Shown in pieces: positions 6,963 to 63,512 of a stretch of 64,000 nt of DNA. Within the stretch, counting starts at the first letter, position 1. The number at the start of each line of letters is the position of its first letter. The DNA is from Minisyncoccia bacterium (GTDB taxonomy: Bacteria; Patescibacteriota; Minisyncoccia; Phycocordibacterales; CAJBRS01): positions 50,712 to 114,711 of the forward strand of contig JBBQRF010000002.1 in assembly GCA_038215155.1 (NCBI GenBank). Direction: 5' to 3'. The notes below the pieces were generated by a model. That model worked only from the letters and a program-made list of their open reading frames with translations. It did no database searches and was not told the origin of the DNA. The position numbers were made by a program, and so were the translations under genes.

Positions 6963-7898
6963 ATGTTTTACGACATGGACCTATTAGAGCTCAAACGACA
7001 GTTTCTCGAGCATGTAGAAATTGAAAAAGGCCGGAGTCTCAAAACCGTCAGGAATTATGAACACTATTTAGATAGGTTTTTTGAATTTTCTAAAATAAGC
7101 ACTCCCTCGGATATCACGGAAGAGCTCATTCGTCAGTACCGTCTCTGGTTGAATCGTCAGTCTGACGGGAAAAATGGGACATTAAAAAAACGAACGCAGA
7201 ATTATTACTTAATTGCTTTGCGCTCTTTTTTAAAATATTTAATCAAACGTAAAATCCCTTCTCTTTCACCCGACACTATTGAATTGGCAAAAGTGCCTGA
7301 TCGATCATTGGATTTAATTGGTCACGAAGATCTAAAGCGATTACTAGTGGCTCCGGAATCGGAGAAAGATGAACTAAAAGGCCTGCGAGACAAAGCTATT
7401 TTAGAATTGTTTTTCTCTACTGGCCTGCGTGTTTCCGAGTTATGCTCTCTTTCCCGTGATTTGGACCTGAGAAAAGACGAATTTTCCGTTAGGGGTAAGG
7501 GAGAAAAAGTACGAGTTGTTTTTCTATCTAACGAGGCGAAGGCTGCTATAAAAAAATATTTAGATAAGAGAGTGGACGTAGAAGATGCCCTTTTCGTCCA
7601 ATTAAAAAACCCGATTGGTAAGAAAGAGGAGGCCAAAGAACTGAGTCGGCTAACGGCGCGCTCTATAGAGAGAATCGTCAAATATTACGCTGTCAAAGCG
7701 GGAATCTCCAAAAAGGTTACTCCTCATGTCATTCGTCATAGCTTCGCCACTGACCTCTTAGAGAACGGCGCGGACCTACGCGCCGTTCAAATGCTTCTCG
7801 GCCACGCTAATATTACTACTACTCAAATTTACACCCATATTACCGACAAGCATCTAAAAGAGATCCATAAGAACTTCCATAATAGGAGAAAGAACTAG
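6963..7898 (+). CDS. xerC: Tyrosine site-specific recombinase XerC/XerD family
   Basis: C-terminal catalytic box HVIRHSFATDLLENGADLRAVQMLLGHANITTTQIYTHI with conserved R..HxxR..Y. Confidence 0.9.
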   Translation: MFYDMDLLELKRQFLEHVEIEKGRSLKTVRNYEHYLDRFFEFSKISTPSDITEELIRQYRLWLNRQSDGKNGTLKKRTQNYYLIALRSFLKYLIKRKIPSLSPDTIELAKVPDRSLDLIGHEDLKRLLVAPESEKDELKGLRDKAILELFFSTGLRVSELCSLSRDLDLRKDEFSVRGKGEKVRVVFLSNEAKAAIKKYLDKRVDVEDALFVQLKNPIGKKEEAKELSRLTARSIERIVKYYAVKAGISKKVTPHVIRHSFATDLLENGADLRAVQMLLGHANITTTQIYTHITDKHLKEIHKNFHNRRKN

Positions 7899-8609: not shown

Positions 8610-9383
8610 ATGAAAATCATCTCTTGGAACGTCAATGGCATCCGCGCCTGGCATAAAAAGGGCTACCTAGATTGGTTTCTTAAGGAAAAACCGGACTTTT
8701 TCTGCCTCCAGGAAACAAAAGCCCATCCCGATCAACTCACCGAAGAACTGCGTAACCCCCTTGGCTATCATTCATACTTTGACCACTCTAAAGGGCGTAA
8801 AGGCTATAGCGGAGTGGCAATCTACACACAGCACGAACCAGAAAAGATTGATTATGGATTAGGAATTAAGGCATTAGACCAAGAGGGTCGTTTCCTCGCT
8901 CTCTATTATAAAGATTTTGTGCTCATCAACATTTATTTTCCAAATGGTGGAGGGGGGCCTGTGCGGCTAAAATACAAACTTCAGTATTACAAGGCGTATT
9001 TAAAGTATGCCGATAGTCTAAGAAAAAAGGGCCTAAGAGTAATATTTTGTGGAGATGTTAATACCGCTCATACGGAGATAGATCTCGCCCGCCCTCGCGA
9101 AAATGCCAGTCATACGGGGTTCTTACCCATTGAGAGGACTTGGTTAGATAAAGTGGTAGAGCACGGTTATGTAGATGTTTATAGGCACTTTTATCCTCAT
9201 CGCACGGGCGCCTATACTTATTGGGATAATTATAGCTTTGCTCGGGAGAGAAATGTGGGCTGGAGAATAGATTATTTTTTCGTAAGCCCAGAACTTATCA
9301 AAAAAGTTAAACAATGTGAGATTTTAGATCAGGTACATGGTTCCGACCACTGCCCTATCCTTCTTGAGATCGACTTATCATAA
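8610..9383 (+). CDS. xth: Exodeoxyribonuclease III (AP endonuclease, ExoIII/APE1 family)
   Basis: MKIISWNVNGIRA N-terminus, ...LQETK..., and C-terminal GSDHCPI. Confidence 0.92.
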   Translation: MKIISWNVNGIRAWHKKGYLDWFLKEKPDFFCLQETKAHPDQLTEELRNPLGYHSYFDHSKGRKGYSGVAIYTQHEPEKIDYGLGIKALDQEGRFLALYYKDFVLINIYFPNGGGGPVRLKYKLQYYKAYLKYADSLRKKGLRVIFCGDVNTAHTEIDLARPRENASHTGFLPIERTWLDKVVEHGYVDVYRHFYPHRTGAYTYWDNYSFARERNVGWRIDYFFVSPELIKKVKQCEILDQVHGSDHCPILLEIDLS

Positions 9384-9925
9384 ATTCTTTATTCACTCCG
9401 TTAGCATCTCTTTTCCGAGAGGTCGGAAGCCCGAATTCTCGGCAAAAGAGACGCTAATTTCGTTCATAAAGAAAACCAGACTTTAAGAATGAGGGTCACG
9501 AGTGCAGGTCGTAAGTCTCGGAGACCGAATTCGGTCCTCCGACCTCGGCGAAGAGATTTACGACGGAACGAGAGACCCTCTATAAAATAAGTTATCCACA
9601 CCTATGTCCTTTACATGTCCTTTAGAAACCATTACTATACTCAGTAGATCTTCTAGCAGCAATCGCTATTAATCCCTCTTGGCGAAAGCAGCTAAAATGT
9701 CCTTTACAATAAAGGTCATCTTGGAAATTATTTTCCTGGGTTGAATTATCAAATTTTTAAAAGGCTATTTAATAGGAAAGACGCCTCTACGGAGATATCT
9801 CTTCTGTTAAAATTACTTATTGGATTCAAATCCCGCGAAACTTTCACTCGATGACGCTTTACTCAAAAGCCGCACAGCGCTTATCAATAATGTCGCTTGC
9901 GGCTTTTTTCATTTGTATTTTTCCC

Positions 9926-11419
9926 CTACTCCACCCAGTATTTTTTCCTAATCTCTTTTACCTCTTCTTCCTCCATTTTCTCCTTAACCTTTTTGCCTTT
10001 TTCCCCCATTTTTCTTAATTCTCCTTCGGAAAATTTGCTTAATTCAATAGCCTTACCCTCTAGATATTTTTTAGTATTTAAGATCGGATCATCCAAGACT
10101 TCTTCCAATAAGGCGTGCAAAATATAGCCAATTTTAGGTCCCGAAGGGAGCTCGGCGACTTCCATTATTTGACCGCCGTTAATCTTAAGCATAGAAACGG
10201 AAACTGGGTCGTGCATCACTTCTTCAATCATGGATTTATATTTGCGTAACCGGTAAGGATTTTCTTTAGGTCTCCCGGTGCCTACCCGATCACAGATACG
10301 TAAATTCATTAAATTCCAAACATTTTCTTTTCCAACATTTTTTACCAATCTTCTGACGGCGGAAAGGGTAATTTGCTCTGTATCAGAAAAGAACATATGC
10401 CAACGAACTAGTTTCGCAACCTCGTCAATAATTTTTTTAGGGAATCTTAAATCGCCAAGAATTTTTTTAGCCATTCTTTCCCCCACTACGTCGTGTCCAT
10501 AAAACGTCCAATCCCCTTTTTCATTAGACCACCTTCGGGCGTGCGGCTTAGCAATGTCGTGAAGTAACGCAGCCAAACGAATTTCCAATGACCAACCCTT
10601 ATCCGCGGCGGCCTGGAAACTTTTTAGGAGATGCTCAAAGACATCATAAGCATGAGCTTGATTTTGCTTAATCCCTTCCGCTTTGGCTAATTCGGGAATG
10701 ATAAATTTTAAAATACCTATATTATTAGCCATATTTAGGGCATTTGCTGGTTTCTGTGACATAGTAATGCGGACAAACTCTTCTCGAATTCTTTCTTTGG
10801 CGATGTTCTTTAAGAGACTGGCATCGTTTTTGATTGCTACCTCAGTGTTACTTTCAATTTTAAAATTGAGCTCGGCAGCTAAGCGAATAGCGCGAAGAAT
10901 TCTCAAACCATCTTCCTTAAATCGTTCTTCTGGATTTTCCACTGTTCGAATGATTTTTTTCTTTAGATCGCTTTGTCCTTCATATAAATCAACAATTTCA
11001 ACCTCCCACTCCCCTTTTAATTCGTTAAGGAGCTTCAGCGCAATAGCGTTAATGGTGAAATCCCGCCGTTTAATATCATCGGATAGATTGTTGCTAAAAG
11101 TAACATGGTCCGGATGACGATTGTCAGAATAATCAGCTTCTAATCGATAAGGAGTGACTTCTACCACCTTCAGGCTTTCATTAAGCGTTTCCTCACTCAC
11201 CACCCCGACTGTGCCGTAGTCATTTTCATAAAAAGTTTTATCAAAGAGAGAAATAATCTTGTCAGGCGCCGCGTTAGTAGTAATATCCCAGTCTTTAGGA
11301 GCTCTCTCTAATAGAAGATCACGAACACAGCCTCCAATTAAATAAGACTCAAAACCAGCTTTTTCCAGCCGGGCAGTTATTCGTGAAACCTCGAGAGGGA
11401 TGGCAAATTTTTTTAACAT
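9926..11419 (-). CDS. cca: CCA-adding tRNA nucleotidyltransferase with C-terminal HD domain. The track ORF extends to 11551 only by reading through the tRNA-Arg gene. The true start is the MLKKFAIPLE ATG at 11419.
   Basis: GGCVRDLLL nucleotidyltransferase motif, ...DITT..., and HD motif LLHDIAK. Confidence 0.88.
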   Translation of the reverse strand: MLKKFAIPLEVSRITARLEKAGFESYLIGGCVRDLLLERAPKDWDITTNAAPDKIISLFDKTFYENDYGTVGVVSEETLNESLKVVEVTPYRLEADYSDNRHPDHVTFSNNLSDDIKRRDFTINAIALKLLNELKGEWEVEIVDLYEGQSDLKKKIIRTVENPEERFKEDGLRILRAIRLAAELNFKIESNTEVAIKNDASLLKNIAKERIREEFVRITMSQKPANALNMANNIGILKFIIPELAKAEGIKQNQAHAYDVFEHLLKSFQAAADKGWSLEIRLAALLHDIAKPHARRWSNEKGDWTFYGHDVVGERMAKKILGDLRFPKKIIDEVAKLVRWHMFFSDTEQITLSAVRRLVKNVGKENVWNLMNLRICDRVGTGRPKENPYRLRKYKSMIEEVMHDPVSVSMLKINGGQIMEVAELPSGPKIGYILHALLEEVLDDPILNTKKYLEGKAIELSKFSEGELRKMGEKGKKVKEKMEEEEVKEIRKKYWVE

Positions 11420-11433
11420 TGGGCTTTCTACGG

Positions 11434-11505
11434 TGCTCCCGGCAGGACTCGAACCCACAATACGACGTCCGAAGCGTCGCGTGATATCCATTTCACCACG
11501 GGAGC
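11434..11505 (-). tRNA. tRNA-Arg (anticodon TCG)
   Basis: Cloverleaf read on the minus strand. Acceptor GCTCCCG/CGGGAGC, anticodon stem CGACG/CGTCG with loop CTTCGGA, T-arm GGGTTCGAGTCC. Confidence 0.85.
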
Positions 11506-11590
11506 AATTGAGGAATATGAATATCATACGAGAAAAATAGACAAACACCAAGATTTAAATTAAAATTTAAGGACTTTTCTCTAAAGTATT

Positions 11591-18243: not shown

Positions 18244-19776
18244 TTATCGAGCAAATTCTACAACTCTATTTTCGCGAATGACGGTAACTTTAATTTCACC
18301 CGGGTACTTTAGTTCTTCTTCAATTCTCTTAGCAATATCTTGGGCCATTTTTTTAGCTTCCAGATCAGTGACCTCGTTTGGAGTGACAAAAATGCGAATT
18401 TCCCGTCCAGCCTGAAGAGCATAAGATTTCTCTACGCCTTTAAAACTATTGGAAATAGCCTCTAAGTCACCCAATCGTTTTAAATAATGCTCCATGGTGT
18501 CTCGGCGAGCTCCAGGGCGCCCGCCAGAGATGGAGTCGGCCGTCTGAACAATGATGGACTCCACTGTCTCATAAGGGTATTCCTCATGATGGGCCTGCAT
18601 GGCTTTAATTATTTCTTCATTGGCGCCGAATTTTTGCAAAATTCGGCGCCCAATCTCCACGTGAGTACCTGCTACCTCGTGATCTACTGCCTTACCAAGA
18701 TCGTGAAGGAGAGCCCCTGCTTTGGCTATCTGGACATTTGCTCCTAATTCTTCCGCCAACATGCCCGCAATATGGGCCATTTCAATAGAATGTTGTAAAA
18801 CGTTTTGACCGTAACTAGTTCTGAAATAAAGTCTGCCTAAAATAGAAACGATTCGGGGATCTAGATTAAAGACACCCGTCTCATAAACAGCTTGTTCACC
18901 CTTTTCTTTAATAATCTTATTTATATCTTGTTTGGCTTTTTCTACTTCTTTCTCAATCTTGGCTGGTTGAATACGCCCGTCTTGGATAAGGGTCTCTAAG
19001 GCAAGGCGTGCCACCTGCCGTCGTACCGGATCAAATGAAGAAATGGTAATGGAGCCGGGAGTATCATCCACAATTATTTCTACCCCAGTTTCTCGCTCAA
19101 AGGCCTTAATGTTTCGGCCCTCCTTGCCAATGATTTTTCCTTTAATTTCATCTGAAGGAATATCTACGCTTGTGGTAAATAAATCAGCAGAGACGGAACT
19201 AGCCAAACGTTGAATTGTAGTGGAAAGAATATCTTTGGCTTTTTGCTCTAACTTCTCTTGACCAAAAGTCTCCAGTTTCTTCATACGAGTCAATATATCT
19301 TCCTCGTATTTCTTCTCTACACTTTGAAGCAAATGTTCTTTTGCTTCATTTTCTCCGAGGTGGGCAATTTTTTCGAGTTCCGTTCTTTTCTGACCCTCCA
19401 GACTATCAACTCTTTCTTTAATTTCTTTAATTTCAGAAATTTTAACTTTAATATTTTCTACTTCCTTATCAATATCCCCCTGGCGTGAGTCCAGAAGCTC
19501 TTCTTTTTTGATTAGGCGATCCTCAGTCTTTTTTAATTTATCTTCCTTTTCTTTAATTTCTTCTCGGAAAGCTTTTAAGGTGCCGGCCGCTTCCGTTTCC
19601 GCTCCCAATGTAATTTTTTTAGCTTCTTCTTTAGCATCAAGCATCATTTGCTTAATCTCTAACTCCATTGAACCTTTTCTACCCAGGGCCACCAATACAC
19701 GCAGAAAATAACCGATAGCAATTCCAACAACGCCGGTTGAGGCAAGCATTAGGAAGACAATTTTTATGGAAATCAT
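18244..19776 (-). CDS. rny: Ribonuclease Y
   Basis: N-terminal TM, coiled coil, KH (IGKEGRNIKAFE), and HD domain (LLHDLGKA). Confidence 0.92.
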   Translation of the reverse strand: MISIKIVFLMLASTGVVGIAIGYFLRVLVALGRKGSMELEIKQMMLDAKEEAKKITLGAETEAAGTLKAFREEIKEKEDKLKKTEDRLIKKEELLDSRQGDIDKEVENIKVKISEIKEIKERVDSLEGQKRTELEKIAHLGENEAKEHLLQSVEKKYEEDILTRMKKLETFGQEKLEQKAKDILSTTIQRLASSVSADLFTTSVDIPSDEIKGKIIGKEGRNIKAFERETGVEIIVDDTPGSITISSFDPVRRQVARLALETLIQDGRIQPAKIEKEVEKAKQDINKIIKEKGEQAVYETGVFNLDPRIVSILGRLYFRTSYGQNVLQHSIEMAHIAGMLAEELGANVQIAKAGALLHDLGKAVDHEVAGTHVEIGRRILQKFGANEEIIKAMQAHHEEYPYETVESIIVQTADSISGGRPGARRDTMEHYLKRLGDLEAISNSFKGVEKSYALQAGREIRIFVTPNEVTDLEAKKMAQDIAKRIEEELKYPGEIKVTVIRENRVVEFAR

Positions 19777-19950: not shown

Positions 19951-20556
19951 TTATAAAACTTTGTCTATAAGACCATATTTTTTGGCTTCCTCGGCATTCA
20001 TCCAGAAGTTGCGATCAACATCCTTTTCTACCTTAGAAATGGATTGTCCGGTATTTTTAGCGAGCATTTTATTAAGAATTTCTCGATTCTTCAGGATTTG
20101 CTTGGCAGTAATTTCAATATCTGAGGCTTGACCTTCAACACCTCCGGAGGGTTGATGAATCATGATTTCTGAATTCGGCAGGCTAAATCTTTTACCTTTT
20201 TTGCCGGCTGATAGAATAAGCGCGCCCATAGAAGCAGCAATACCTACACAAATAGTAGAAACATCATTCTTAACGTGATGCATGGTATCAATGATGGCGA
20301 GACCTGCGGTGACCATGCCGCCGGGGGAATGAACATAAAGATTAATATCTTTTTTTGGATCTTCAGATTGTAAAAATAATAATTGAGCAATGACAATGTT
20401 GGCAACATTATCATCAATAGGGCTACCGAGGAAGATTATGTTTTCGCGAAGGAGGCGAGAATAAATATCATAAGCACGCTCGCCGAATTGAGATTTTTCT
20501 ATTACGGTTGGGATTAACATATGGGGCAAGTATAGTAAAAAGTCTCTAAATTGCAA
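19951..20556 (-). CDS. clpP: ATP-dependent Clp protease proteolytic subunit. The start is possibly at the MLIPTVIE Met, about 20520.
   Basis: IPTVIE...RIIFLG-type N-terminus. Active-site GxASMGA (GIAASMGA), and His in MIHQP. Confidence 0.93.
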
Positions 20557-20584
20557 ATAAGTCGCTTTTTCCCCGCTCCTACGA

Positions 20585-20662
20585 ACTTTTGTCGAGGCGC
20601 GTTAGTTAATTTGGGTCCGCTAGGCCAAGTCTTACCCTCGCCAAAAGTTGCAGGACGGATCC
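20585..20662. repeat. Copy 1 of a ~65-80 nt palindromic repeat element (second copy at 63053-63162)
   Basis: acttttgtcgaggcgcgtYagtYaatttgggtccgctaggccaagtcttaccctcgcYaaaagt is about 90% identical between the two loci, with 13-14-bp terminal inverted repeats. Confidence 0.8.
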
Positions 20663-20720
20663 AAAAGCGACACATTATGTTCCAGTGAAACTTTCAAATG
20701 AAACTTGTTACAATTACAGG

Positions 20721-21437
20721 ATGAGGTTACACAGATTTTTAATTGAGGAAGAAATTGGAGATAGAAAAGAAATTACTATCACCGATTCGGAGTTATTGCA
20801 TCAGTGGCGCAATGTTTTTCGGTTCACCACGGGAACACAACTTTTAACTTTTGACAATTCTGGTTTTGAGTACTTAGCTTTGATTTCTCGGATTTCCCAT
20901 TTAGGCGCTTCGCTGAAAATAATTAATAAAGAAGAGAGAGACTTAAGTGGACCGAAGGTTTCTCTTTTTGCTGCCCTAATTAAAAAAAGTAATTTTGAAT
21001 GGGTGGTGGAAAAGGCGACTGAGCTTGGGGTCTCTCGTGTGGTACCCATTATTTCTGATCGCAGTGAAAAGAAAGGATTGAATATGGTCCGGGCGAAAAA
21101 AATTATTAAGGAAGCTAGTGAGCAGTCGGGAAGAGTAAGATTGACGAAATTAAATTCGCCGATAAACTTGGAAGATTTAATAGTTAGTTTGGAGATTAAA
21201 AAAGGCAAGAAAATAAATAATATTGTCATTGATCCTACTGGTGACATTTTTCCACCATCAGAAAAATTTGCCGAAGAAGTCGGTGTATTTGTTGGACCAG
21301 AAGGTGGCTGGGCTGAACGGGAGCTTCAACTTTTCAAATTAAAAAATATTCCTATTTATAGTCTCGGCCCGCAAATTCTGCGGGCCGAGACAGCCGCCAT
21401 TGCCGTCACCAGCTTTCTTTTGCTGCCCCGACGTTGA
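20721..21437 (+). CDS. rsmE: 16S rRNA (uracil1498-N3)-methyltransferase RsmE. The ORF is open from 20685. MRLHRFLI is the probable start.
   Basis: MRLHRF N-terminus. PUA-like N-domain, and the SPOUT C-terminus GPEGGW...E...LGPRILRAETA. Confidence 0.85.
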   Translation: MRLHRFLIEEEIGDRKEITITDSELLHQWRNVFRFTTGTQLLTFDNSGFEYLALISRISHLGASLKIINKEERDLSGPKVSLFAALIKKSNFEWVVEKATELGVSRVVPIISDRSEKKGLNMVRAKKIIKEASEQSGRVRLTKLNSPINLEDLIVSLEIKKGKKINNIVIDPTGDIFPPSEKFAEEVGVFVGPEGGWAERELQLFKLKNIPIYSLGPQILRAETAAIAVTSFLLLPRR

Positions 21438-46937: not shown

Positions 46938-48143
46938 ATGGCAGAGACTTTTGATAGATCAAAACCTCACGTCAACGTTGGAACTATTGGTCACGTTGAC
47001 CACGGAAAGACCACTACTACCGCCGCTATTCTTCACGTCCTTGGAAATCTCGGAAAGGACAAAGGTTATAGCGCTCGAGTAGAAAATGTAGATGGTATTG
47101 ATAATGCTCCTGAAGAGAAGGCCCGAGGAATTACTATTGCCCTTCACCATTCTGAATACGAGACTCCAAACCGTCACTACGCTCACATTGACGCCCCTGG
47201 TCACGCCGATTACATCAAGAACATGATTACTGGAGCGGCTCAAATGGACGGCGCTATTCTTGTAGTAGCTGCTACCGATGGAGCTATGCCCCAAACTCGC
47301 GAGCACGTACTCTTGGCTAAACAAGTTGGAGTGCCTAAGATGATCGTTTATCTAAATAAGTGCGACATGGTAGATGATAAGGATTTGATTGACCTAGTGG
47401 AAGCAGAAATTCGAGAACTTCTTACTAAGAATGATTTCGATGGAGATAATGCTCCTGTTATCCGAGGTTCTTCTATTAAAGCCCTTGAAGCTAAAAGCAT
47501 TGATGATGAAAGTGCTAAGCCAATTGTAGATCTTATCAACGCTTTGGACACCTACATCCCAACTCCTATCAGAGAAATTGAAAAGCCTTTCCTTATGCCC
47601 GTAGAAGACATCTTCTCTATTGAAGGCCGAGGAACTGTAGTTACAGGGAGAATTGAGAGAGGAAAGGTAAAGGTAGGTGAAGAAATAGAAATCATCGGAC
47701 TTCACCCTACTACCAAGACCACTATTACTGGAATTGAAATGTTCAATAAATCTTTGGCTGAAGGTCTTGCTGGAGATAATGCTGGAATCTTACTCCGAGG
47801 TACTAAAAAGGAAGACGTACATCGTGGTCAAGTTTTAGCAAAGAGTGGTTCTGTCACTCCTCACACTGAATTTGAAGCTGAAGTCTACATTTTGAAGAAA
47901 GAAGAAGGTGGCCGACATACTCCATTCTTTACTGGATACAAACCTCAGTTCTACATTCGAACTACTGACGTAACTGGAGAAGTAACTCTAAATGAAGGAG
48001 TAGAAATGGTTATGCCGGGAGACACTGTTACTTTCAAAGTAAAATTGGTTGCACCGGTTGCTCTTGAAGAAAAACAACGCTTCGCTATTCGAGAAGGTGG
48101 AAAGACAGTGGGCGCTGGAGTAGTTACTAAGATTACCGCGTAG
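46938..48143 (+). CDS. tuf: Elongation factor Tu
   Basis: [18 protein letters not shown]...DAPGHADY... Confidence 0.98.
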
Positions 48144-48235
48144 AAGTCCATAAAGTTTTTAAAGTCCTTAAAGTTATTCTTGTCGCAAGACAAAAAACTT
48201 TAAGGACGTTGAAAACACTAAGGACCTTATAGCCT
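48144..48235. repeat. Palindromic intergenic element of the GTCC(W)TAAAG family in the tuf-rpsJ spacer
   Basis: aagtccataaagtttttaaagtccttaaagtt...aactttaaggacgt inverted repeat with a central ttgtcgcaagacaa hairpin. Confidence 0.7.
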
Positions 48236-48676
48236 ATGAGTGAAACAACTAAAAAAACAAAAACTACCACTTCAAAAGCGAAGACACCTCGAGCTACTAA
48301 AACAGGCGGCGCCTCTAAAGGTCGCGCCACAGCTCCCAAAACTGCGGCCGTTAAAGCGGCCGCAGAAGGTATCTCAAAATTGCGCATTCGAGTACGAGCT
48401 TACGAATCCAAAATACTTGATCAATCAGTTAAGCAAATTATGGACACCGCTCTTCGATATGACGCTACAGTTTTGGGTCCCATTCCTCTCCCAACTGAAA
48501 TTAAAAAATACACGGTGAATCGCTCCGCTTTCGTTTACAAAAACGCCAGAGAGCAGTTTGAGATGAGAGTTCATAAGCGTTTGCTTGACATAGTAAATCC
48601 TACCGCTAAAGTGGTGGAGGCCCTCACTAATTTGAGCTTACCAAGTGGAGTCAGTATTGATGTAAAAATGATTTAA
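48236..48676 (+). CDS. rpsJ: 30S ribosomal protein S10 with an ~45-aa Lys/Thr/Ala-rich N-terminal extension
   Basis: RIRVRAYESKILD...conserved S10 core. No alternative ATG between the annotated start and the core. Confidence 0.9.
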   Translation: MSETTKKTKTTTSKAKTPRATKTGGASKGRATAPKTAAVKAAAEGISKLRIRVRAYESKILDQSVKQIMDTALRYDATVLGPIPLPTEIKKYTVNRSAFVYKNAREQFEMRVHKRLLDIVNPTAKVVEALTNLSLPSGVSIDVKMI

Positions 48677-56460: not shown

Positions 56461-57075
56461 ATGGATGAAGAAAATAAAAATTTAAATAACGAAGGAACTG
56501 TAGAAGAAGCGGCCGGAGCCGCCGTTCCGGCGGCTCCGGCTCAAGTTCCTTCACAAGGAGATCGTCCACAACGAGGGTCTTTTCGTAATGCTCGCACAAA
56601 AAACGAACGAAAACCTCGCCGTGAGCCCCGTGCTAAACCAGAATTCGATCAACGAATCATTGCTATCCGCCGAGTAACTCGAGTGGCTGCTGGAGGTCGC
56701 CGCTTCAGTTTCAGCGTGGCACTAGTAGCTGGTAATCGAAAGGGCCAAGTGGGGGTTGGAACCGGTAAAGCCGGCGATACATCTTTAGCAATCGAGAAAG
56801 CTTTGAAAAATGCCAAGAAGAATATGATTACAGTAAGAACAACTAGCGACATGTCTATTGCGCATGAAATTAAGGCCAAATTCTCAAGTGCTCGGGTGGA
56901 AATTTTCCCTGCCAAAGGGCGTGGAATTGCCGCGGGAAGTTCCGTTCGGGACGTCATTGATCTAGCTGGTATTAAAGATGTTACCGCCAAGCTTCACTCT
57001 GGAACTAAGAATAAACTCAATAACGCCAGGGCCGCTATCAAAGCTCTGTCGAGTCTTAAAGTGGTCAAGTCCTAA
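56461..57075 (+). CDS. rpsE: 30S ribosomal protein S5 with an ~45-aa acidic/Ala-Pro-rich N-terminal extension
   Basis: RVTRVAAGGRRFSFSVALVAGNRKGQVGVGTGKA. Confidence 0.95.
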   Translation: MDEENKNLNNEGTVEEAAGAAVPAAPAQVPSQGDRPQRGSFRNARTKNERKPRREPRAKPEFDQRIIAIRRVTRVAAGGRRFSFSVALVAGNRKGQVGVGTGKAGDTSLAIEKALKNAKKNMITVRTTSDMSIAHEIKAKFSSARVEIFPAKGRGIAAGSSVRDVIDLAGIKDVTAKLHSGTKNKLNNARAAIKALSSLKVVKS

Positions 57076-59463: not shown

Positions 59464-60234
59464 ATGATTAAACTAAAGACAGCAGAAGAAATTAAAAAAT
59501 TGCGTCAAGGAGGAAAAATCCTTGCCGCCATTCTCAATGAAATTGCCGGACGCCTTGTGCCCGGTACCAATACTAAGGACCTCAATGTTTTCGCTGATGA
59601 GCTTTGTAAGGCACAGCAAGTTATTCCTGTTTTTCTTAACTATCAGCCTGAAGGCGCCGCTCGACCATACCCTGCTTCAATTTGTATTTCAATTAATGAT
59701 GAAATTGTTCACGGCATTCCCAATAAGGGAAGTGGCCGAATTTTAAAAGAAGGAGATATCGTTTCTCTAGACATGGGCATTAGTCATGACGGAATGATTG
59801 TTGATAGTGCTATTACATTTGGCGTAGGAAAGATTGATGATTCCGCTACGAGATTATTAGCGGCGGGGAAGGAGACCCTGGCGGCGGCTATCGCCGCCGC
59901 CAGGGTCGGCAGCCGCACCGGCGACATCGGTGCGGCCATAGAAGCCGTTGCTACTCGCGCTGGCTTCACCCTTCCAGAAGAGCTCGGCGGCCACGGCGTC
60001 GGCCACGCCGTTCATGAAGACCCTTTCATTCCAAATTTTGGCAAAGCCGGGGAAGGAGTGATACTTAAAGCTGGCATGGTTCTCGCCATTGAGCCCATGC
60101 TCAATGAAGGTAGCAAAGAAACCTTTGTAGATAAAGACGGTTACACTTTTCGTACCACAGACGGCAAGAGAAGCTGCCATTTTGAACACACTATTGCCAT
60201 CTCTGATAAAGGACCAGAAATATTAACTAAATAA
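59464..60234 (+). CDS. map: Methionine aminopeptidase type I
   Basis: Pita-bread fold metal ligands D..D..H..E..E (ISLDMG...HGIP...EPM). Confidence 0.93.
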   Translation: MIKLKTAEEIKKLRQGGKILAAILNEIAGRLVPGTNTKDLNVFADELCKAQQVIPVFLNYQPEGAARPYPASICISINDEIVHGIPNKGSGRILKEGDIVSLDMGISHDGMIVDSAITFGVGKIDDSATRLLAAGKETLAAAIAAARVGSRTGDIGAAIEAVATRAGFTLPEELGGHGVGHAVHEDPFIPNFGKAGEGVILKAGMVLAIEPMLNEGSKETFVDKDGYTFRTTDGKRSCHFEHTIAISDKGPEILTK

Positions 60235-60262: not shown

Positions 60263-63049
60263 TTGTTGATGGAAGCACCTATTAGCACTAGTCCAGAAAC
60301 TAAATTTTCTTCAGCCGAAGAAGAGCTTCAATATTTGCGGGAGAAGATTGCGGAAAAAGAACGCGAACTCTCTAAAAATAAAGAGCAGTTTAACCGAGAG
60401 GAAGTAATTAGATCTGAACTAAAAGAATATAAAAACCAGCATCCGGCGGATGTTTTAGATAAAGGCCATGCCATGCTCGAATCGCATGTTGATGCGATAG
60501 TTTTAAATCTGTCTCCCGAATCTCATGATGCAAAAATGAGTGAGCTTCTCGGCTTGCTCCAAGAAAAGGGCATTATGAATGCGTTGTCAGTAGTGGAGAA
60601 AATGAATAATCCCCATATTGAAGACGATTTCCACCGCTTCCTAGTGGAATATATTAAGCAGGGATTTCCAGTCGAGGGGCTAAAAGAAAAAACTCTCATC
60701 GCCAAGGCTCTCCGCCACACTCTCTATGAAATTTCCTTGCCTATGGACGTTGAAAAGGACGAAAAAACTCACGGTCTAAAAGAAGTTTTATCCTCTATGG
60801 AGCAATTTTATGCGGGCATGCTTTCCGTATCTCTAAAGCATGCCGATCTGCGGGCTGAAGAAAACTTCTTTACCATCGAGCTCGCCAACTCTATCGGAAG
60901 TCAAGAATTTATTTTTTACGCTTCAGTTCCCGATGCTAAGCGAGACTTATTTGAAAAACAATTACTTTCCATTTTTCCAAAAGCCACCATTACTCTTCAG
61001 ACAAATGATTACAATGTTTTCACTGATCTTGGTGCTACTGCTGGATCCTATGGAGTTCAATCGACTAATCCAATTTTTCCAATTAAAAATTATGATCAAT
61101 TCAATTTCGACCCTCTAAACGTTCTTTTAAATACTTTTTCTAAATTAGAACAGCACGGAGAAGGGGCAGCTATTCAGTTAGTTTTTAATCCAGCGGGAGA
61201 TTATTACACCTCGCGCTACAAAGACGCCCTAAAAGAAATTCAAAAGGGCGTCCCATTGAAGAAAGCCATTGATATCAAACATAGTTTAGTCGGAGAATTA
61301 TTTAAGACTAGTAAAAATGCTGCCTTGGATTTAGCAGTCGGCACTATAAAAGGTGATTCAAAGGAAAAATCTTCGACCGATGAGAAGACTCTTGAAAATA
61401 TCCGAGAGAAGATAGAAAGTCCGGTTATTGAGGCTAATTTGCGGATTATCACCTCAGCTAAGACAGAATATCGGGCGAAGGAAATTCTTTCGGAAATCCA
61501 ATCGGCCTTTAATCAATTTGATAATACTACCGGTAATGCTATTAGATTCCGAGAGGAAAAAGGTTCTACTCTAGCCAATCTAGTGCGTCATTTTTCCTTT
61601 CGATACTTTGATAAAGATGAATCTCTTAAAATAAATCTGAAAGAGGCTACTACTTTAATGCACTTTCCAAGCGCCGGAGTGGTCCACTCCGCCGAGCTTC
61701 GCTCGGCTCATGCAGCCACCGCTCCGGCGCCCGTTGATTTGGGGAATGAGGGCATTCTTATTGGAATTAATCGTCATCGCAATCTTGAGACGAAAATCCA
61801 CATGGCTCCCGAAGATCGTCTGCGTCACTTTTATGCCGTCGGACAAACTGGTACAGGCAAGACCACTTTCCTTAAGAACATGATCATCCAAGATATTAGA
61901 AATGGTGATGGTGTCTGTATGATTGATCCTCACGGTTCTGATATTCAGGACATTCTCGCTAACATTCCCCAATCTCGTTACGAGGACGTTATTTATTTTG
62001 ATCCAAGCTACACGCCCCGCCCAATGGCTCTAAACATGCTTGAATACGACCCACGTTACCCCGAGCAGAAGACTTTCGTTGTAAATGAAATGCTCTCTAT
62101 CTTCAATAAACTTTTTGATATGAAAGTGGCTGGAGGTCCTATGTTTGAACAATACTTTCGAAACGCCACCATGCTCGTCATTGAAGATCCGGAGACTGGT
62201 AACACCCTTTTAGATGTTTCGCGTGTTTTAGCTCAAAAAAGTTTTCGCGAGTTGAAACTCTCACGTTGTAAAAATCCAATCGTTGTTCAGTTTTGGCGAG
62301 ACATTGCAGAGAAAGCCGGAGGAGAATCATCACTTGCGAATATTGTTCCCTACATTACTTCTAAATTTGACGTCTTTTTATCCAATGACATCATGCGGCC
62401 GATTATTGCCCAAGAACATTCTTCATTTAACTTTCGAGAGATCATGGATAATCGTAAGATCTTGCTGGTAAATTTAGCCAAGGGTCGTCTCGGTGATATT
62501 AACGCTAATCTCATCGGTCTAATTTTAGTAGGGAAAATTTTAATGTCCGCGCTTTCTCGAGTAGATTCTCTTGGCCAAGACTTACCACCTTTTTATCTAT
62601 ACATTGATGAGTTTCAGAACATTACCACTGATTCTATTGCCACCATTCTTTCTGAAGCACGAAAGTACAAACTCTCCCTTACAATTGCTCACCAATTTAT
62701 TAAGCAATTAGAAGAGAAAATAAAAGATGCTGTCTTTGGAAACGTGGGAACTATGGCTTCTTTTAGAGTAGGTAGCGATGATGCAGAGTTTCTAGAAAAA
62801 CAATTTGCTCCAGTCTTTTCAGCCCACGATTTAATGAATGTGGACAATCATAATGCTTACATTAAAATGCTTTCTCACGGCAAGCCGATTAAACCTTTCA
62901 GTATTGAGCAGTTAGGATTTCTGCCAAAAGGTAATGCGGACTTAATAGATAAGTTGAAGGAGTTATCATATTTGAAATTTGGCGAAGAGAGGGAGCTAGT
63001 AGAGGGGCGAATTATGGAGAAGTATCGCGCCGCTGCTACTAAGGTTTAA
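60263..63049 (+). CDS. Large P-loop NTPase of the FtsK/HerA/TraD-TraG (type IV secretion coupling protein-like, 'T4SS DNA-binding domain') superfamily. Uncharacterised ~480-aa N-terminal region.
   Basis: Walker A AVGQTGTGKTTF. Hydrophobic beta-strand plus Walker B FYLYIDEFQN. TIAHQ sensor-like motif. No TM helices evident. Confidence 0.7.
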   Translation: MLMEAPISTSPETKFSSAEEELQYLREKIAEKERELSKNKEQFNREEVIRSELKEYKNQHPADVLDKGHAMLESHVDAIVLNLSPESHDAKMSELLGLLQEKGIMNALSVVEKMNNPHIEDDFHRFLVEYIKQGFPVEGLKEKTLIAKALRHTLYEISLPMDVEKDEKTHGLKEVLSSMEQFYAGMLSVSLKHADLRAEENFFTIELANSIGSQEFIFYASVPDAKRDLFEKQLLSIFPKATITLQTNDYNVFTDLGATAGSYGVQSTNPIFPIKNYDQFNFDPLNVLLNTFSKLEQHGEGAAIQLVFNPAGDYYTSRYKDALKEIQKGVPLKKAIDIKHSLVGELFKTSKNAALDLAVGTIKGDSKEKSSTDEKTLENIREKIESPVIEANLRIITSAKTEYRAKEILSEIQSAFNQFDNTTGNAIRFREEKGSTLANLVRHFSFRYFDKDESLKINLKEATTLMHFPSAGVVHSAELRSAHAATAPAPVDLGNEGILIGINRHRNLETKIHMAPEDRLRHFYAVGQTGTGKTTFLKNMIIQDIRNGDGVCMIDPHGSDIQDILANIPQSRYEDVIYFDPSYTPRPMALNMLEYDPRYPEQKTFVVNEMLSIFNKLFDMKVAGGPMFEQYFRNATMLVIEDPETGNTLLDVSRVLAQKSFRELKLSRCKNPIVVQFWRDIAEKAGGESSLANIVPYITSKFDVFLSNDIMRPIIAQEHSSFNFREIMDNRKILLVNLAKGRLGDINANLIGLILVGKILMSALSRVDSLGQDLPPFYLYIDEFQNITTDSIATILSEARKYKLSLTIAHQFIKQLEEKIKDAVFGNVGTMASFRVGSDDAEFLEKQFAPVFSAHDLMNVDNHNAYIKMLSHGKPIKPFSIEQLGFLPKGNADLIDKLKELSYLKFGEERELVEGRIMEKYRAAATKV

Positions 63050-63052
63050 TTA

Positions 63053-63162
63053 GGAAAATCCTCCTATGTCCTAAGACTTTTGTCGAGGCGCGTCAGTCAA
63101 TTTGGGTCCGCTAGGCCAAGTCTTACCCTCGCTAAAAGTCTCAGGACACATCCGGATTTTCC
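63053..63162. repeat. Copy 2 of the palindromic repeat element (see 20585-20662), here with extended outer inverted repeats (ggaaaatcc...ggattttcc)
   Basis: Core of about 64 nt is roughly 90% identical to copy 1. Nested inverted repeats. Confidence 0.8.
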
Positions 63163-63225
63163 AGGCAGATTTCTTCAAATGGTTTTTTAGTTAAGTAGAA
63201 AGGAGAGGTATTTTCAGGCCTTCGG

Positions 63226-63410
63226 CATTTTCTATTTAGAGAGACTGCGCAGCCAATTAGAAAATAACAGCCAAAAAATTTGGTACCGGAGGCGCGCATA
63301 GGCGGAGACGATAGCGGCGCAGGCAAATTTTTGGGCGCCTTATTTTCTTGATTGGCGAGCGAGAACAAATCGCTAGCAAGCGATTATGTGTGCTCTCTAA
63401 ATAGAAAATG
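63226..63410. mobile_element. MITE-like 185-bp element with perfect 18-bp terminal inverted repeats and a GC-rich interior
   Basis: cattttctatttagagag (63226-63243) and ctctctaaatagaaaatg (63393-63410) are exact reverse complements. Confidence 0.55.
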
Positions 63411-63512
63411 CGGAAGGCGTTAAGAAAAAAACAGACTTAATATACAAACTAGAACAATATGCCGGTTTCATGTAAGATATGATTCTTACTTATTAAATTC
63501 TAAATTTCCAAA

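Follow-up and report, generated by a model that had tools for sequence, protein, structure and literature searches.

A small palindromic repeat at two intergenic sites of a Paceibacteria genome

Two related sequences in the clpP-rsmE and ATPase-ndk spacers

The DNA considered here is a window of 64 kb (the whole stretch that was analysed) from a CPR genome of the Paceibacteria/Parcubacteria, in which two intergenic spacers carry closely related palindromic sequences, both on the + strand. Copy 1 lies between clpP (19951-20520, - strand) and rsmE (20721-21437, + strand), 50 nt away from the latter. Copy 2 follows the gene of a 926-aa DUF8128/TraG-like ATPase (60269-63049, + strand), the last of a string that comprises ribosomal-protein genes, secY, adk and map; its hairpin starts 4 nt past the stop codon (63047-63049), and ndk (63513) is found 350 nt downstream of it in the same orientation. 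An earlier sequence-only reading had placed the two copies in the divergent clpP/rsmE promoter region and downstream of the large ATPase gene, respectively, and both placements agree with the gene calls and, for copy 1, with the predicted promoters. GC skew, consulted for a common replichore of both copies, was uninformative.

Comparison of the window with itself by blastn aligned positions 20577-20662 with 63069-63153 on the same strand (86 nt, 89.5% identity, E 1.4e-22), and a 31-mer of the core was found exactly twice in the window, with 0 occurrences expected in 100 shuffles. These two results confirm that the two intergenic loci share sequence, as had been noticed before. The identity of about 90% then given holds for the 86-nt block and understates that of the 64-nt core ACTTTTG...YAAAAGT (20585-20648 in copy 1 and, by alignment to it, 63076-63139 in copy 2), of which 61 of 64 positions (95%) are identical. 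The three core differences, at 20603/63094, 20607/63098 and 20642/63133, are all T/C transitions, copy 1 having T, T and C where copy 2 has C, C and T. In both copies, inverted repeats of 13 nt (ACTTTTGTCGAGG and CCTCGCYAAAAGT) mark the two ends of the core, in keeping with the terminal inverted repeats previously ascribed to each copy; in the core of copy 1, ACTTTTGTCGAGG and CCTCGCCAAAAGT enclose a non-palindromic interior of 38 nt. The inverted-repeat arms reach 36 nt in copy 2, where they are 81% complementary. Identity declines from the centre to the outside, from the core through the flanking zone of 9-14 nt per side (TCCTAnGA ... CAGGACnnATCC; about 70-78%) to the outermost part (about 20%), and pairing is kept throughout. 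The element has a GC content of 50-53%, higher than that of the surrounding spacer (30%) or of the window (41%). A covariance model (R1) built from both copies and run without filters on the window found no third copy. A coding function was considered and rejected: one frame is open through both cores, but its start is not conserved, and in copy 2 a stop codon (TAA, 63072-63074) closely precedes it.

On the clpP side of copy 1, a promoter scan predicted a promoter at 20529-20556 on the - strand (-35 TTGCAA at 20556-20551, -10 TATACT) that abuts the left end of the hairpin, and the block GTATAG..TGCAAAT is conserved in two relatives with the same gene order, L001 and L002. On the rsmE side, an extended -10 element (TG-T-TACAAT; TGTTACAAT, 20706-20723, + strand) was predicted, with the ATG (20721) following after exactly 6 nt, and the same spacing between -10 and ATG is found for rsmE in L002 (AACAAT) and L001 (TATACT). 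Judged from these sequences, the rsmE mRNA is probably leaderless, and the 6-nt spacing in three Paceibacteria genomes suggests that leaderlessness is conserved. A leaderless rsmE mRNA would put copy 1 upstream of the two divergent promoters, where neither mRNA would include it and where it is probably neutral. A role of copy 1 as a terminator or a 5′ leader was rejected for the same reason, since nothing upstream of two divergent promoters needs termination.

Prediction of Rho-independent terminators (a hairpin plus a T-run) returned none at either copy. The cis-regulatory or terminator module that the sequence-only reading had entertained thus loses most of its ground, copy 1 being upstream of both promoters and neither copy having a T-run terminator; what may be retained is that copy 2 lengthens the stem-loop after the ATPase gene and has an incidental role as a 3′-end hairpin. 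A strong hairpin (z < -3), of unrelated sequence, directly follows the ATPase stop in 16 of 80 relatives (20%), and the median relative has none (median z -0.57). In two of the relatives, orthologous long AT-rich hairpins directly follow this stop (L012:4366-4475 and L013:12793-12875). Their inner arms are common, their outer stems differ with compensation, and the apical loop of the L012 hairpin holds an extra mini-hairpin of about 26 nt, a case of hairpin-in-hairpin growth. Homology of these hairpins with the repeat was considered and rejected: the best uncorrected p was about 0.04, and the similarity is not significant.

Between copy 2 and ndk, positions 63213-63423 form an unrelated imperfect hairpin of about 205 nt, with 31-nt arms of 90% complementarity and an MFE of -94.7 kcal/mol (z -6.9). 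Rfam has no match for it and the relatives nothing similar, and a Logan contig of the same strain (L088) begins inside it, at 63301.

Folding of the two copies and their outer stems

Each copy folds into a single long hairpin, of about 111 nt for copy 1 (20561-20671) and about 110 nt for copy 2 (63053-63162), on both strands and with RNA as well as DNA parameters. The RNA fold of copy 1 has an energy of -43.2 kcal/mol (z -4.4) on the + strand and -48.6 kcal/mol (z -4.8) on the - strand; the values for copy 2 are -46.2 (z -4.9) and -52.0 (z -5.5). With DNA parameters, z is -3.1 for copy 1 and -5.6 for copy 2. Neither folding energies nor G-U counts allow a choice of strand, as no asymmetry was found, the fold of the - strand being as good as that of the + strand or better. 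Taken by itself, the 65-nt core shows only weak structure (z -2.1 and -1.9 on the + strand, -1.4 and -0.5 on the - strand), and its conserved 39-nt interior has no more structure than shuffled sequences (z +0.6 and +0.4). Since the interior behaves like shuffled sequence, the structural signal comes from the inverted repeats and the outer stems and not from the most conserved part; the conservation of an interior without excess structure has the look of recent copying, not of a constraint on structure.

The outermost stems are perfect over 9 bp in both copies and stand in the same register, and their sequences are unrelated between the copies. In copy 1 the stem is formed by GTCGCTTTT (20561-20569) and AAAAGCGAC (20663-20671), in copy 2 by GGAAAATCC (63053-63061) and GGATTTTCC (63154-63162); outer inverted repeats had previously been credited to copy 2 alone, a difference that does not hold now that both copies are seen to fold into hairpins of equal extent. 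A stem as good was obtained in 21 of 20000 shuffles of the flanks for copy 1 and in 31 of 20000 for copy 2, and a window-wide control at positions spaced likewise found such stems in 1 of 1722 cases. RNAalifold identified seven pairs that are altered on both sides between the copies, all of them in the basal stems, and the middle stem has one more exchange between C-G and U-A. Of the three core substitutions, two are unpaired and one turns G-C into G-U on the + strand. The earlier observation that substitutions between the copies spare the paired arms or preserve pairing is accurate as a pattern, but with n = 3 it is statistically meaningless. The selected RNA structure deduced from it is not supported: in addition to the small number of substitutions, the strands are equal, the interior is unstructured, Rfam gives no match and the element is absent from syntenic relatives.

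A search of the whole window against Rfam 15 at the gathering threshold returned four tRNAs only, and ARAGORN likewise found four ordinary tRNAs and nothing else in the window. When each locus was searched at E<=10, only chance hairpins of the miRNA/snoRNA type appeared, none above 15 bits.

Relatives, further copies and a possible third variant

Sampling of the lineage is sparse: among 5.8 billion proteins, the best match to RsmE other than itself is 70% identical. The order of clpP and rsmE is kept in the relatives L001 (RsmE 70% identical) and L002 (66%), whose spacers measure 111 and 72 nt, respectively, as against 200 nt in the window, and lack the element. These two spacers align on either side of the extra ~110-130 nt of the window, which conserved promoter blocks flank, and neither has a palindrome at the position of copy 1. 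At the other site, the ATPase-ndk spacer measures 7-117 nt in the 14 relatives inspected and 463 nt in the window, and the element is absent from all relatives examined. The closest relatives by Ndk, L089 and L090 (90% and 89% identity), have spacers of 341 nt (L089:9660-10000) and 731 nt (L090:9270-10000) that contain unrelated small ORFs, namely one of 115 aa without a Pfam match in L089 and one of 127 aa on the reverse strand in L090. From the sequences compared, the ATPase-ndk spacer appears to be an insertion hotspot. The combination of kept synteny and absence of the element in relatives points to lineage-specific gain of both copies, although loss elsewhere or fast turnover of spacers could also produce it, given how distant the relatives are (mostly at or below 70% protein identity, with Ndk up to 90%).

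Further copies were sought with blastn and with model R1 in 85-90 related Paceibacteria loci (1.30-1.36 Mb), where only Logan contigs of the same strain matched. The 20-mer GGGTCCGCTAGGCCAAGTCT had 0 matches in 185,579 GTDB species genomes, a purine/pyrimidine-relaxed pattern of the apex had 0 matches in viral contigs and JGI metagenomes, and the stem pattern ACTTTTGNCGAGG-N30-45-CCTCGNNAAAAGT had 0 matches in metagenomes and viral contigs; such exact and degenerate pattern scans detect near-identical copies only. Phage and plasmid collections gave no match by blastn. The sequence-only reading had proposed further copies and covariation as its own check, and the two halves came out differently: no further copy was read directly, and seven pairs are changed on both sides.

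Assembly breakpoints add a hint of another kind. Logan contigs are built with k=31, all 31-mers being distinct within one accession (PMC12424806). In run SRR19962015, which carries the same strain, such contigs are interrupted within the core. To the left of copy 1, contig L085 ends at 20637, which is 30 nt after the last copy-1-specific base (20607), exactly as two copies predict. To the left of copy 2, contig L004 ends at 63124, exactly 30 nt past the variable site 63094; with two copies the end would be expected 4 nt further on, at 63128. To the right of copy 1, contig L086 starts at 20621, 9 nt short of the expected 20612. The latter two breaks imply at least one more sequence in the sample that shares the 30-mers 63095-63124 and 20621-20650, and an allelic variant or a third copy could account for it. 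This is a weak hint, because the strain's contigs have breaks away from the repeat as well. These contigs, 3-10 kb long, did not reach another copy. The behaviour is of practical importance in itself, as the repeat breaks short-read assemblies exactly at its core.

Origin of the repeat and known systems

The explanation that we put first, at roughly even chances, is that the two copies belong to a lineage-restricted, non-autonomous palindromic repeat of a MITE- or REPIN-like kind, lodged at the centre of site-specific palindromes. In its favour are the inverted repeats, at least two near-identical copies, absence from the orthologous sites, a GC content foreign to the spacer (which exceeds that of the surroundings, as expected for an inserted segment), non-coding positions that can be regarded as “safe” and the lack of RNA-family or expression signals. 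Of the three candidates proposed from the sequence alone, the MITE is the one that fits best, with the reservation that neither a target-site duplication nor, in the window, a transposase was found. A systematic scan of the homologous boundaries for a target-site duplication found only the 3-nt TCC or imperfect AT-rich matches of 6-7 nt, and the candidate direct repeats (TCC and TTNCAAAT) are no better than shuffled sequence; in alignments of the flanks, 3190/5000 and 1871/5000 shuffles score as well; a shared 3′ tail (TTCCAG...TTCAAATG) is not significant against shuffles either. No transposase, HUH or RAYT was found by Pfam among the window ORFs examined. Also against a MITE is the distribution of identity, since the centre is conserved best and the ends worst, the reverse of classical MITEs and a pattern that looks like structural constraint; moreover, two copies were read directly in the 64-kb window. 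The sole recombinase seen in the window is a protein of 311 aa (6963-7898, + strand) with Phage_integrase and SAM-like N-terminal domains, which adjoins rpsO and an NYN-domain gene and is probably XerC/D-like.

Under this explanation, a unit of about 64-86 bp with 13-nt inverted repeats would have been copied to at least two intergenic sites. It would have entered as DNA, probably as a folded single strand, through the agency of an enzyme encoded elsewhere or of replication template-switching. The insertions would have been made into the centre of short palindromes, the predicted empty sites being GTCGCTTTT-TCC-AAAAGCGAC for copy 1 and GGAAAATCC|GGATTTTCC for copy 2 or, written joined, TAAGTCGCTTTTTCCAAAAGCGACAC and TTAGGAAAATCCGGATTTTCCAGG. 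Alternatively, the flanks may have been turned palindromic afterwards by hairpin template-switching.

It is unlikely, in our estimate, that the copies are instead two paralogous small structured RNAs, trans-acting or protein-binding, in which the apical 64-nt core is constrained and the basal stem has merely to pair. The seven basal pairs changed on both sides with pairing kept, the C-G/U-A exchange in the middle stem and the change of G-C to G-U on the + strand as the sole core-stem substitution would suit such RNAs, as would a GC of 50-53% within a spacer of 30% and perfect 9-bp outer stems that share a register and are individually improbable; an apical domain with a function would also produce an identity that is high at the apex and low towards the base. 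The paired changes between unrelated flanks are, however, explained equally well by insertion into palindromes, and the conserved interior lacks excess folding, and folding of the - strand is no poorer than that of the + strand. Furthermore, no promoter or terminator signals are common to both copies, copy 1 is outside both neighbouring transcription units, Rfam has no match even at E<=10, and nothing of the kind occurs at the syntenic sites or in 1.36 Mb of relatives. RNAs that act in cis, as a 5′ leader (riboswitch or attenuator) of rsmE and ndk on the + strand, are very improbable. Both copies are indeed oriented like the next gene, at 50 nt from rsmE and 350 nt from ndk, but the distance of exactly 6 nt from the -10 element of rsmE to its ATG, the same in three genomes, probably leaves copy 1 upstream of the promoter, the unrelated 205-nt hairpin intervenes between copy 2 and ndk, relatives have no leader, and Rfam again gives no match.

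A different kind of account dispenses with mobility altogether and holds that both hairpins (DNA cruciforms or RNA stem-loops) were selected locally, copy 2 being the native stem-loop of an operon end and copy 1 a separate palindrome of the clpP/rsmE region, for example an operator or insulator, and that their centres were homogenised by gene conversion. That 16/80 relatives have a strong unrelated hairpin after the ATPase stop agrees with this account, and so does the covarying L012/L013 hairpin with its loop insertion, which implies that such hairpins are recurrent and evolve by compensatory change; at copy 1, the flanks that remain when the shared block is removed form a perfect, operator-like 9-3-9 palindrome by the clpP -35. 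We nevertheless hold it to be quite unlikely, since two unrelated spacers separated by 42 kb would need some homology beforehand for gene conversion to act, no palindrome occupies the copy 1 position in L001 or L002, the median relative is hairpin-free after the ATPase gene (z -0.57) and neither copy has the T-run signature of a terminator. It is likewise doubtful that the copies represent a previously undescribed hairpin module of the CPR, either a mobile element that targets hairpin loops or a small RNA with a constant apex and a covarying base. The loop-targeting version may account for the nested hairpins, the site-specific outer stems, the lack of a transposase of its own and the lack of a target duplication, and the unrelated perfect outer stems are, together with the loop insertion in L012/L013, compatible with the view that hairpins growing within hairpins are a general way in which the spacers of these reduced genomes evolve. 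Two further possibilities were rejected. The copies are not the attL and attR of an integrated 42-kb element, as the interval consists of housekeeping genes that stand in the same order in relatives without the repeat. DGRs are common in CPR, but a template/variable repeat pair does not fit differences that are mixed in direction on either strand and copies that are both intergenic, and no reverse transcriptase was found among the window ORFs checked.

Several families of small palindromic repeats offer themselves for comparison with the repeat, among them Correia/CREE of Neisseria, ERIC/IRU of enterobacteria, RUP/BOX of Streptococcus and RPE of Rickettsia. These families have tens to hundreds of copies, their termini are best conserved and they usually have a defined target-site duplication (TA for Correia). 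Like Correia, ERIC, RUP and RPE, the repeat is about 100-150 bp long with inverted-repeat ends, forms one long hairpin and is intergenic and non-coding; it also varies in presence between related genomes, and a location near promoters or just past stops is frequent among them. Unlike them, it was read in two copies, has no significant duplication and combines a conserved centre with site-specific outermost stems. REPINs are recognised by a conserved 5′ motif of the GTAG type, a variable loop and a cognate RAYT (TnpA-REP, HUH Y1) gene. The repeat shares with REPs and REPINs the long imperfect intergenic hairpin of ~70-110 nt, and REPs are thought to move as folded single-stranded DNA, with no classical duplication. 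It differs from them in that a GTAG-like tetranucleotide occurs in copy 1 only (TCGTAGG on the - strand, where copy 2 has CTTAGG), that the loop is the conserved part and that the window ORFs examined include no RAYT.

Some mobile elements target palindromes, such as IS1397 and ISKpn1, which insert into the loops of REP/BIME, IS621 (IS110 family), which inserts into REPs, and class C group II introns, which insert beside terminator hairpins. With these, the arms of the target palindrome flank the insert, matching the copy-specific 9-bp outer stems found here; they are, in contrast, autonomous kilobase elements with known enzymes, whereas the insert considered here is a non-coding one of 64-90 nt whose empty sites are predicted only. 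Copy 2, 4 nt past a stop at which about 20% of relatives have a hairpin, finally resembles operon-end stem-loops and Rho-independent terminators, from which the repeat is set apart by the lack of a T-run after either hairpin and by the position of copy 1 between divergent promoters.

The genomes of CPR/Patescibacteria are streamlined and of small size, with little mobile DNA that can be recognised, and the full-text literature that names Patescibacteria together with miniature inverted-repeat elements yielded incidental mentions only and no description of such a repeat. If the repeat was gained in one Paceibacteria lineage, small non-autonomous repeats would still arise and spread in CPR. The copies lie within a few bases of an operon's stop codon and of the clpP promoter. 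Their one unusual feature is the site-specific outer stems; should these stems reflect insertion into hairpin loops or growth by template switching, they would provide a handle on the evolution of structured spacers in reduced genomes, and failing that the element is an ordinary small repeat.

Other structured segments occur in the same window. The spacer at 9394-9565, between ORFs 8610-9383 (+ strand) and 9926-11551 (- strand), forms two long hairpins (MFE -77 kcal/mol, z -7.4, 48% GC) for which Rfam gives only a chance match to ROSE_3 (E 0.98). An RNA gene missed by the annotation and a further palindromic insertion are both conceivable here. An AT-rich hairpin at 48146-48225, with 33-nt arms that are 82% complementary, separates ORF 46938-48143 from ORF 48236-48676 and is probably an operon-internal stem-loop. 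The typical terminator-like hairpins of this genome (17843-17873 and 46739-46767) have perfect GC-rich stems of 13-14 bp and a GAA loop (GCGAAGC) and do not at all resemble the repeat's outer stems, which are AT-rich. Perfect GC-rich hairpins with stems of 13-15 bp are also found inside coding regions, at 59874-59907 in map, 56512-56540 in ORF 56461-57075, 21361-21391 at the 3′ end of rsmE and 18622-18650 in rny; that in map overlaps an Ala-rich stretch, so that codon composition may explain part of it.
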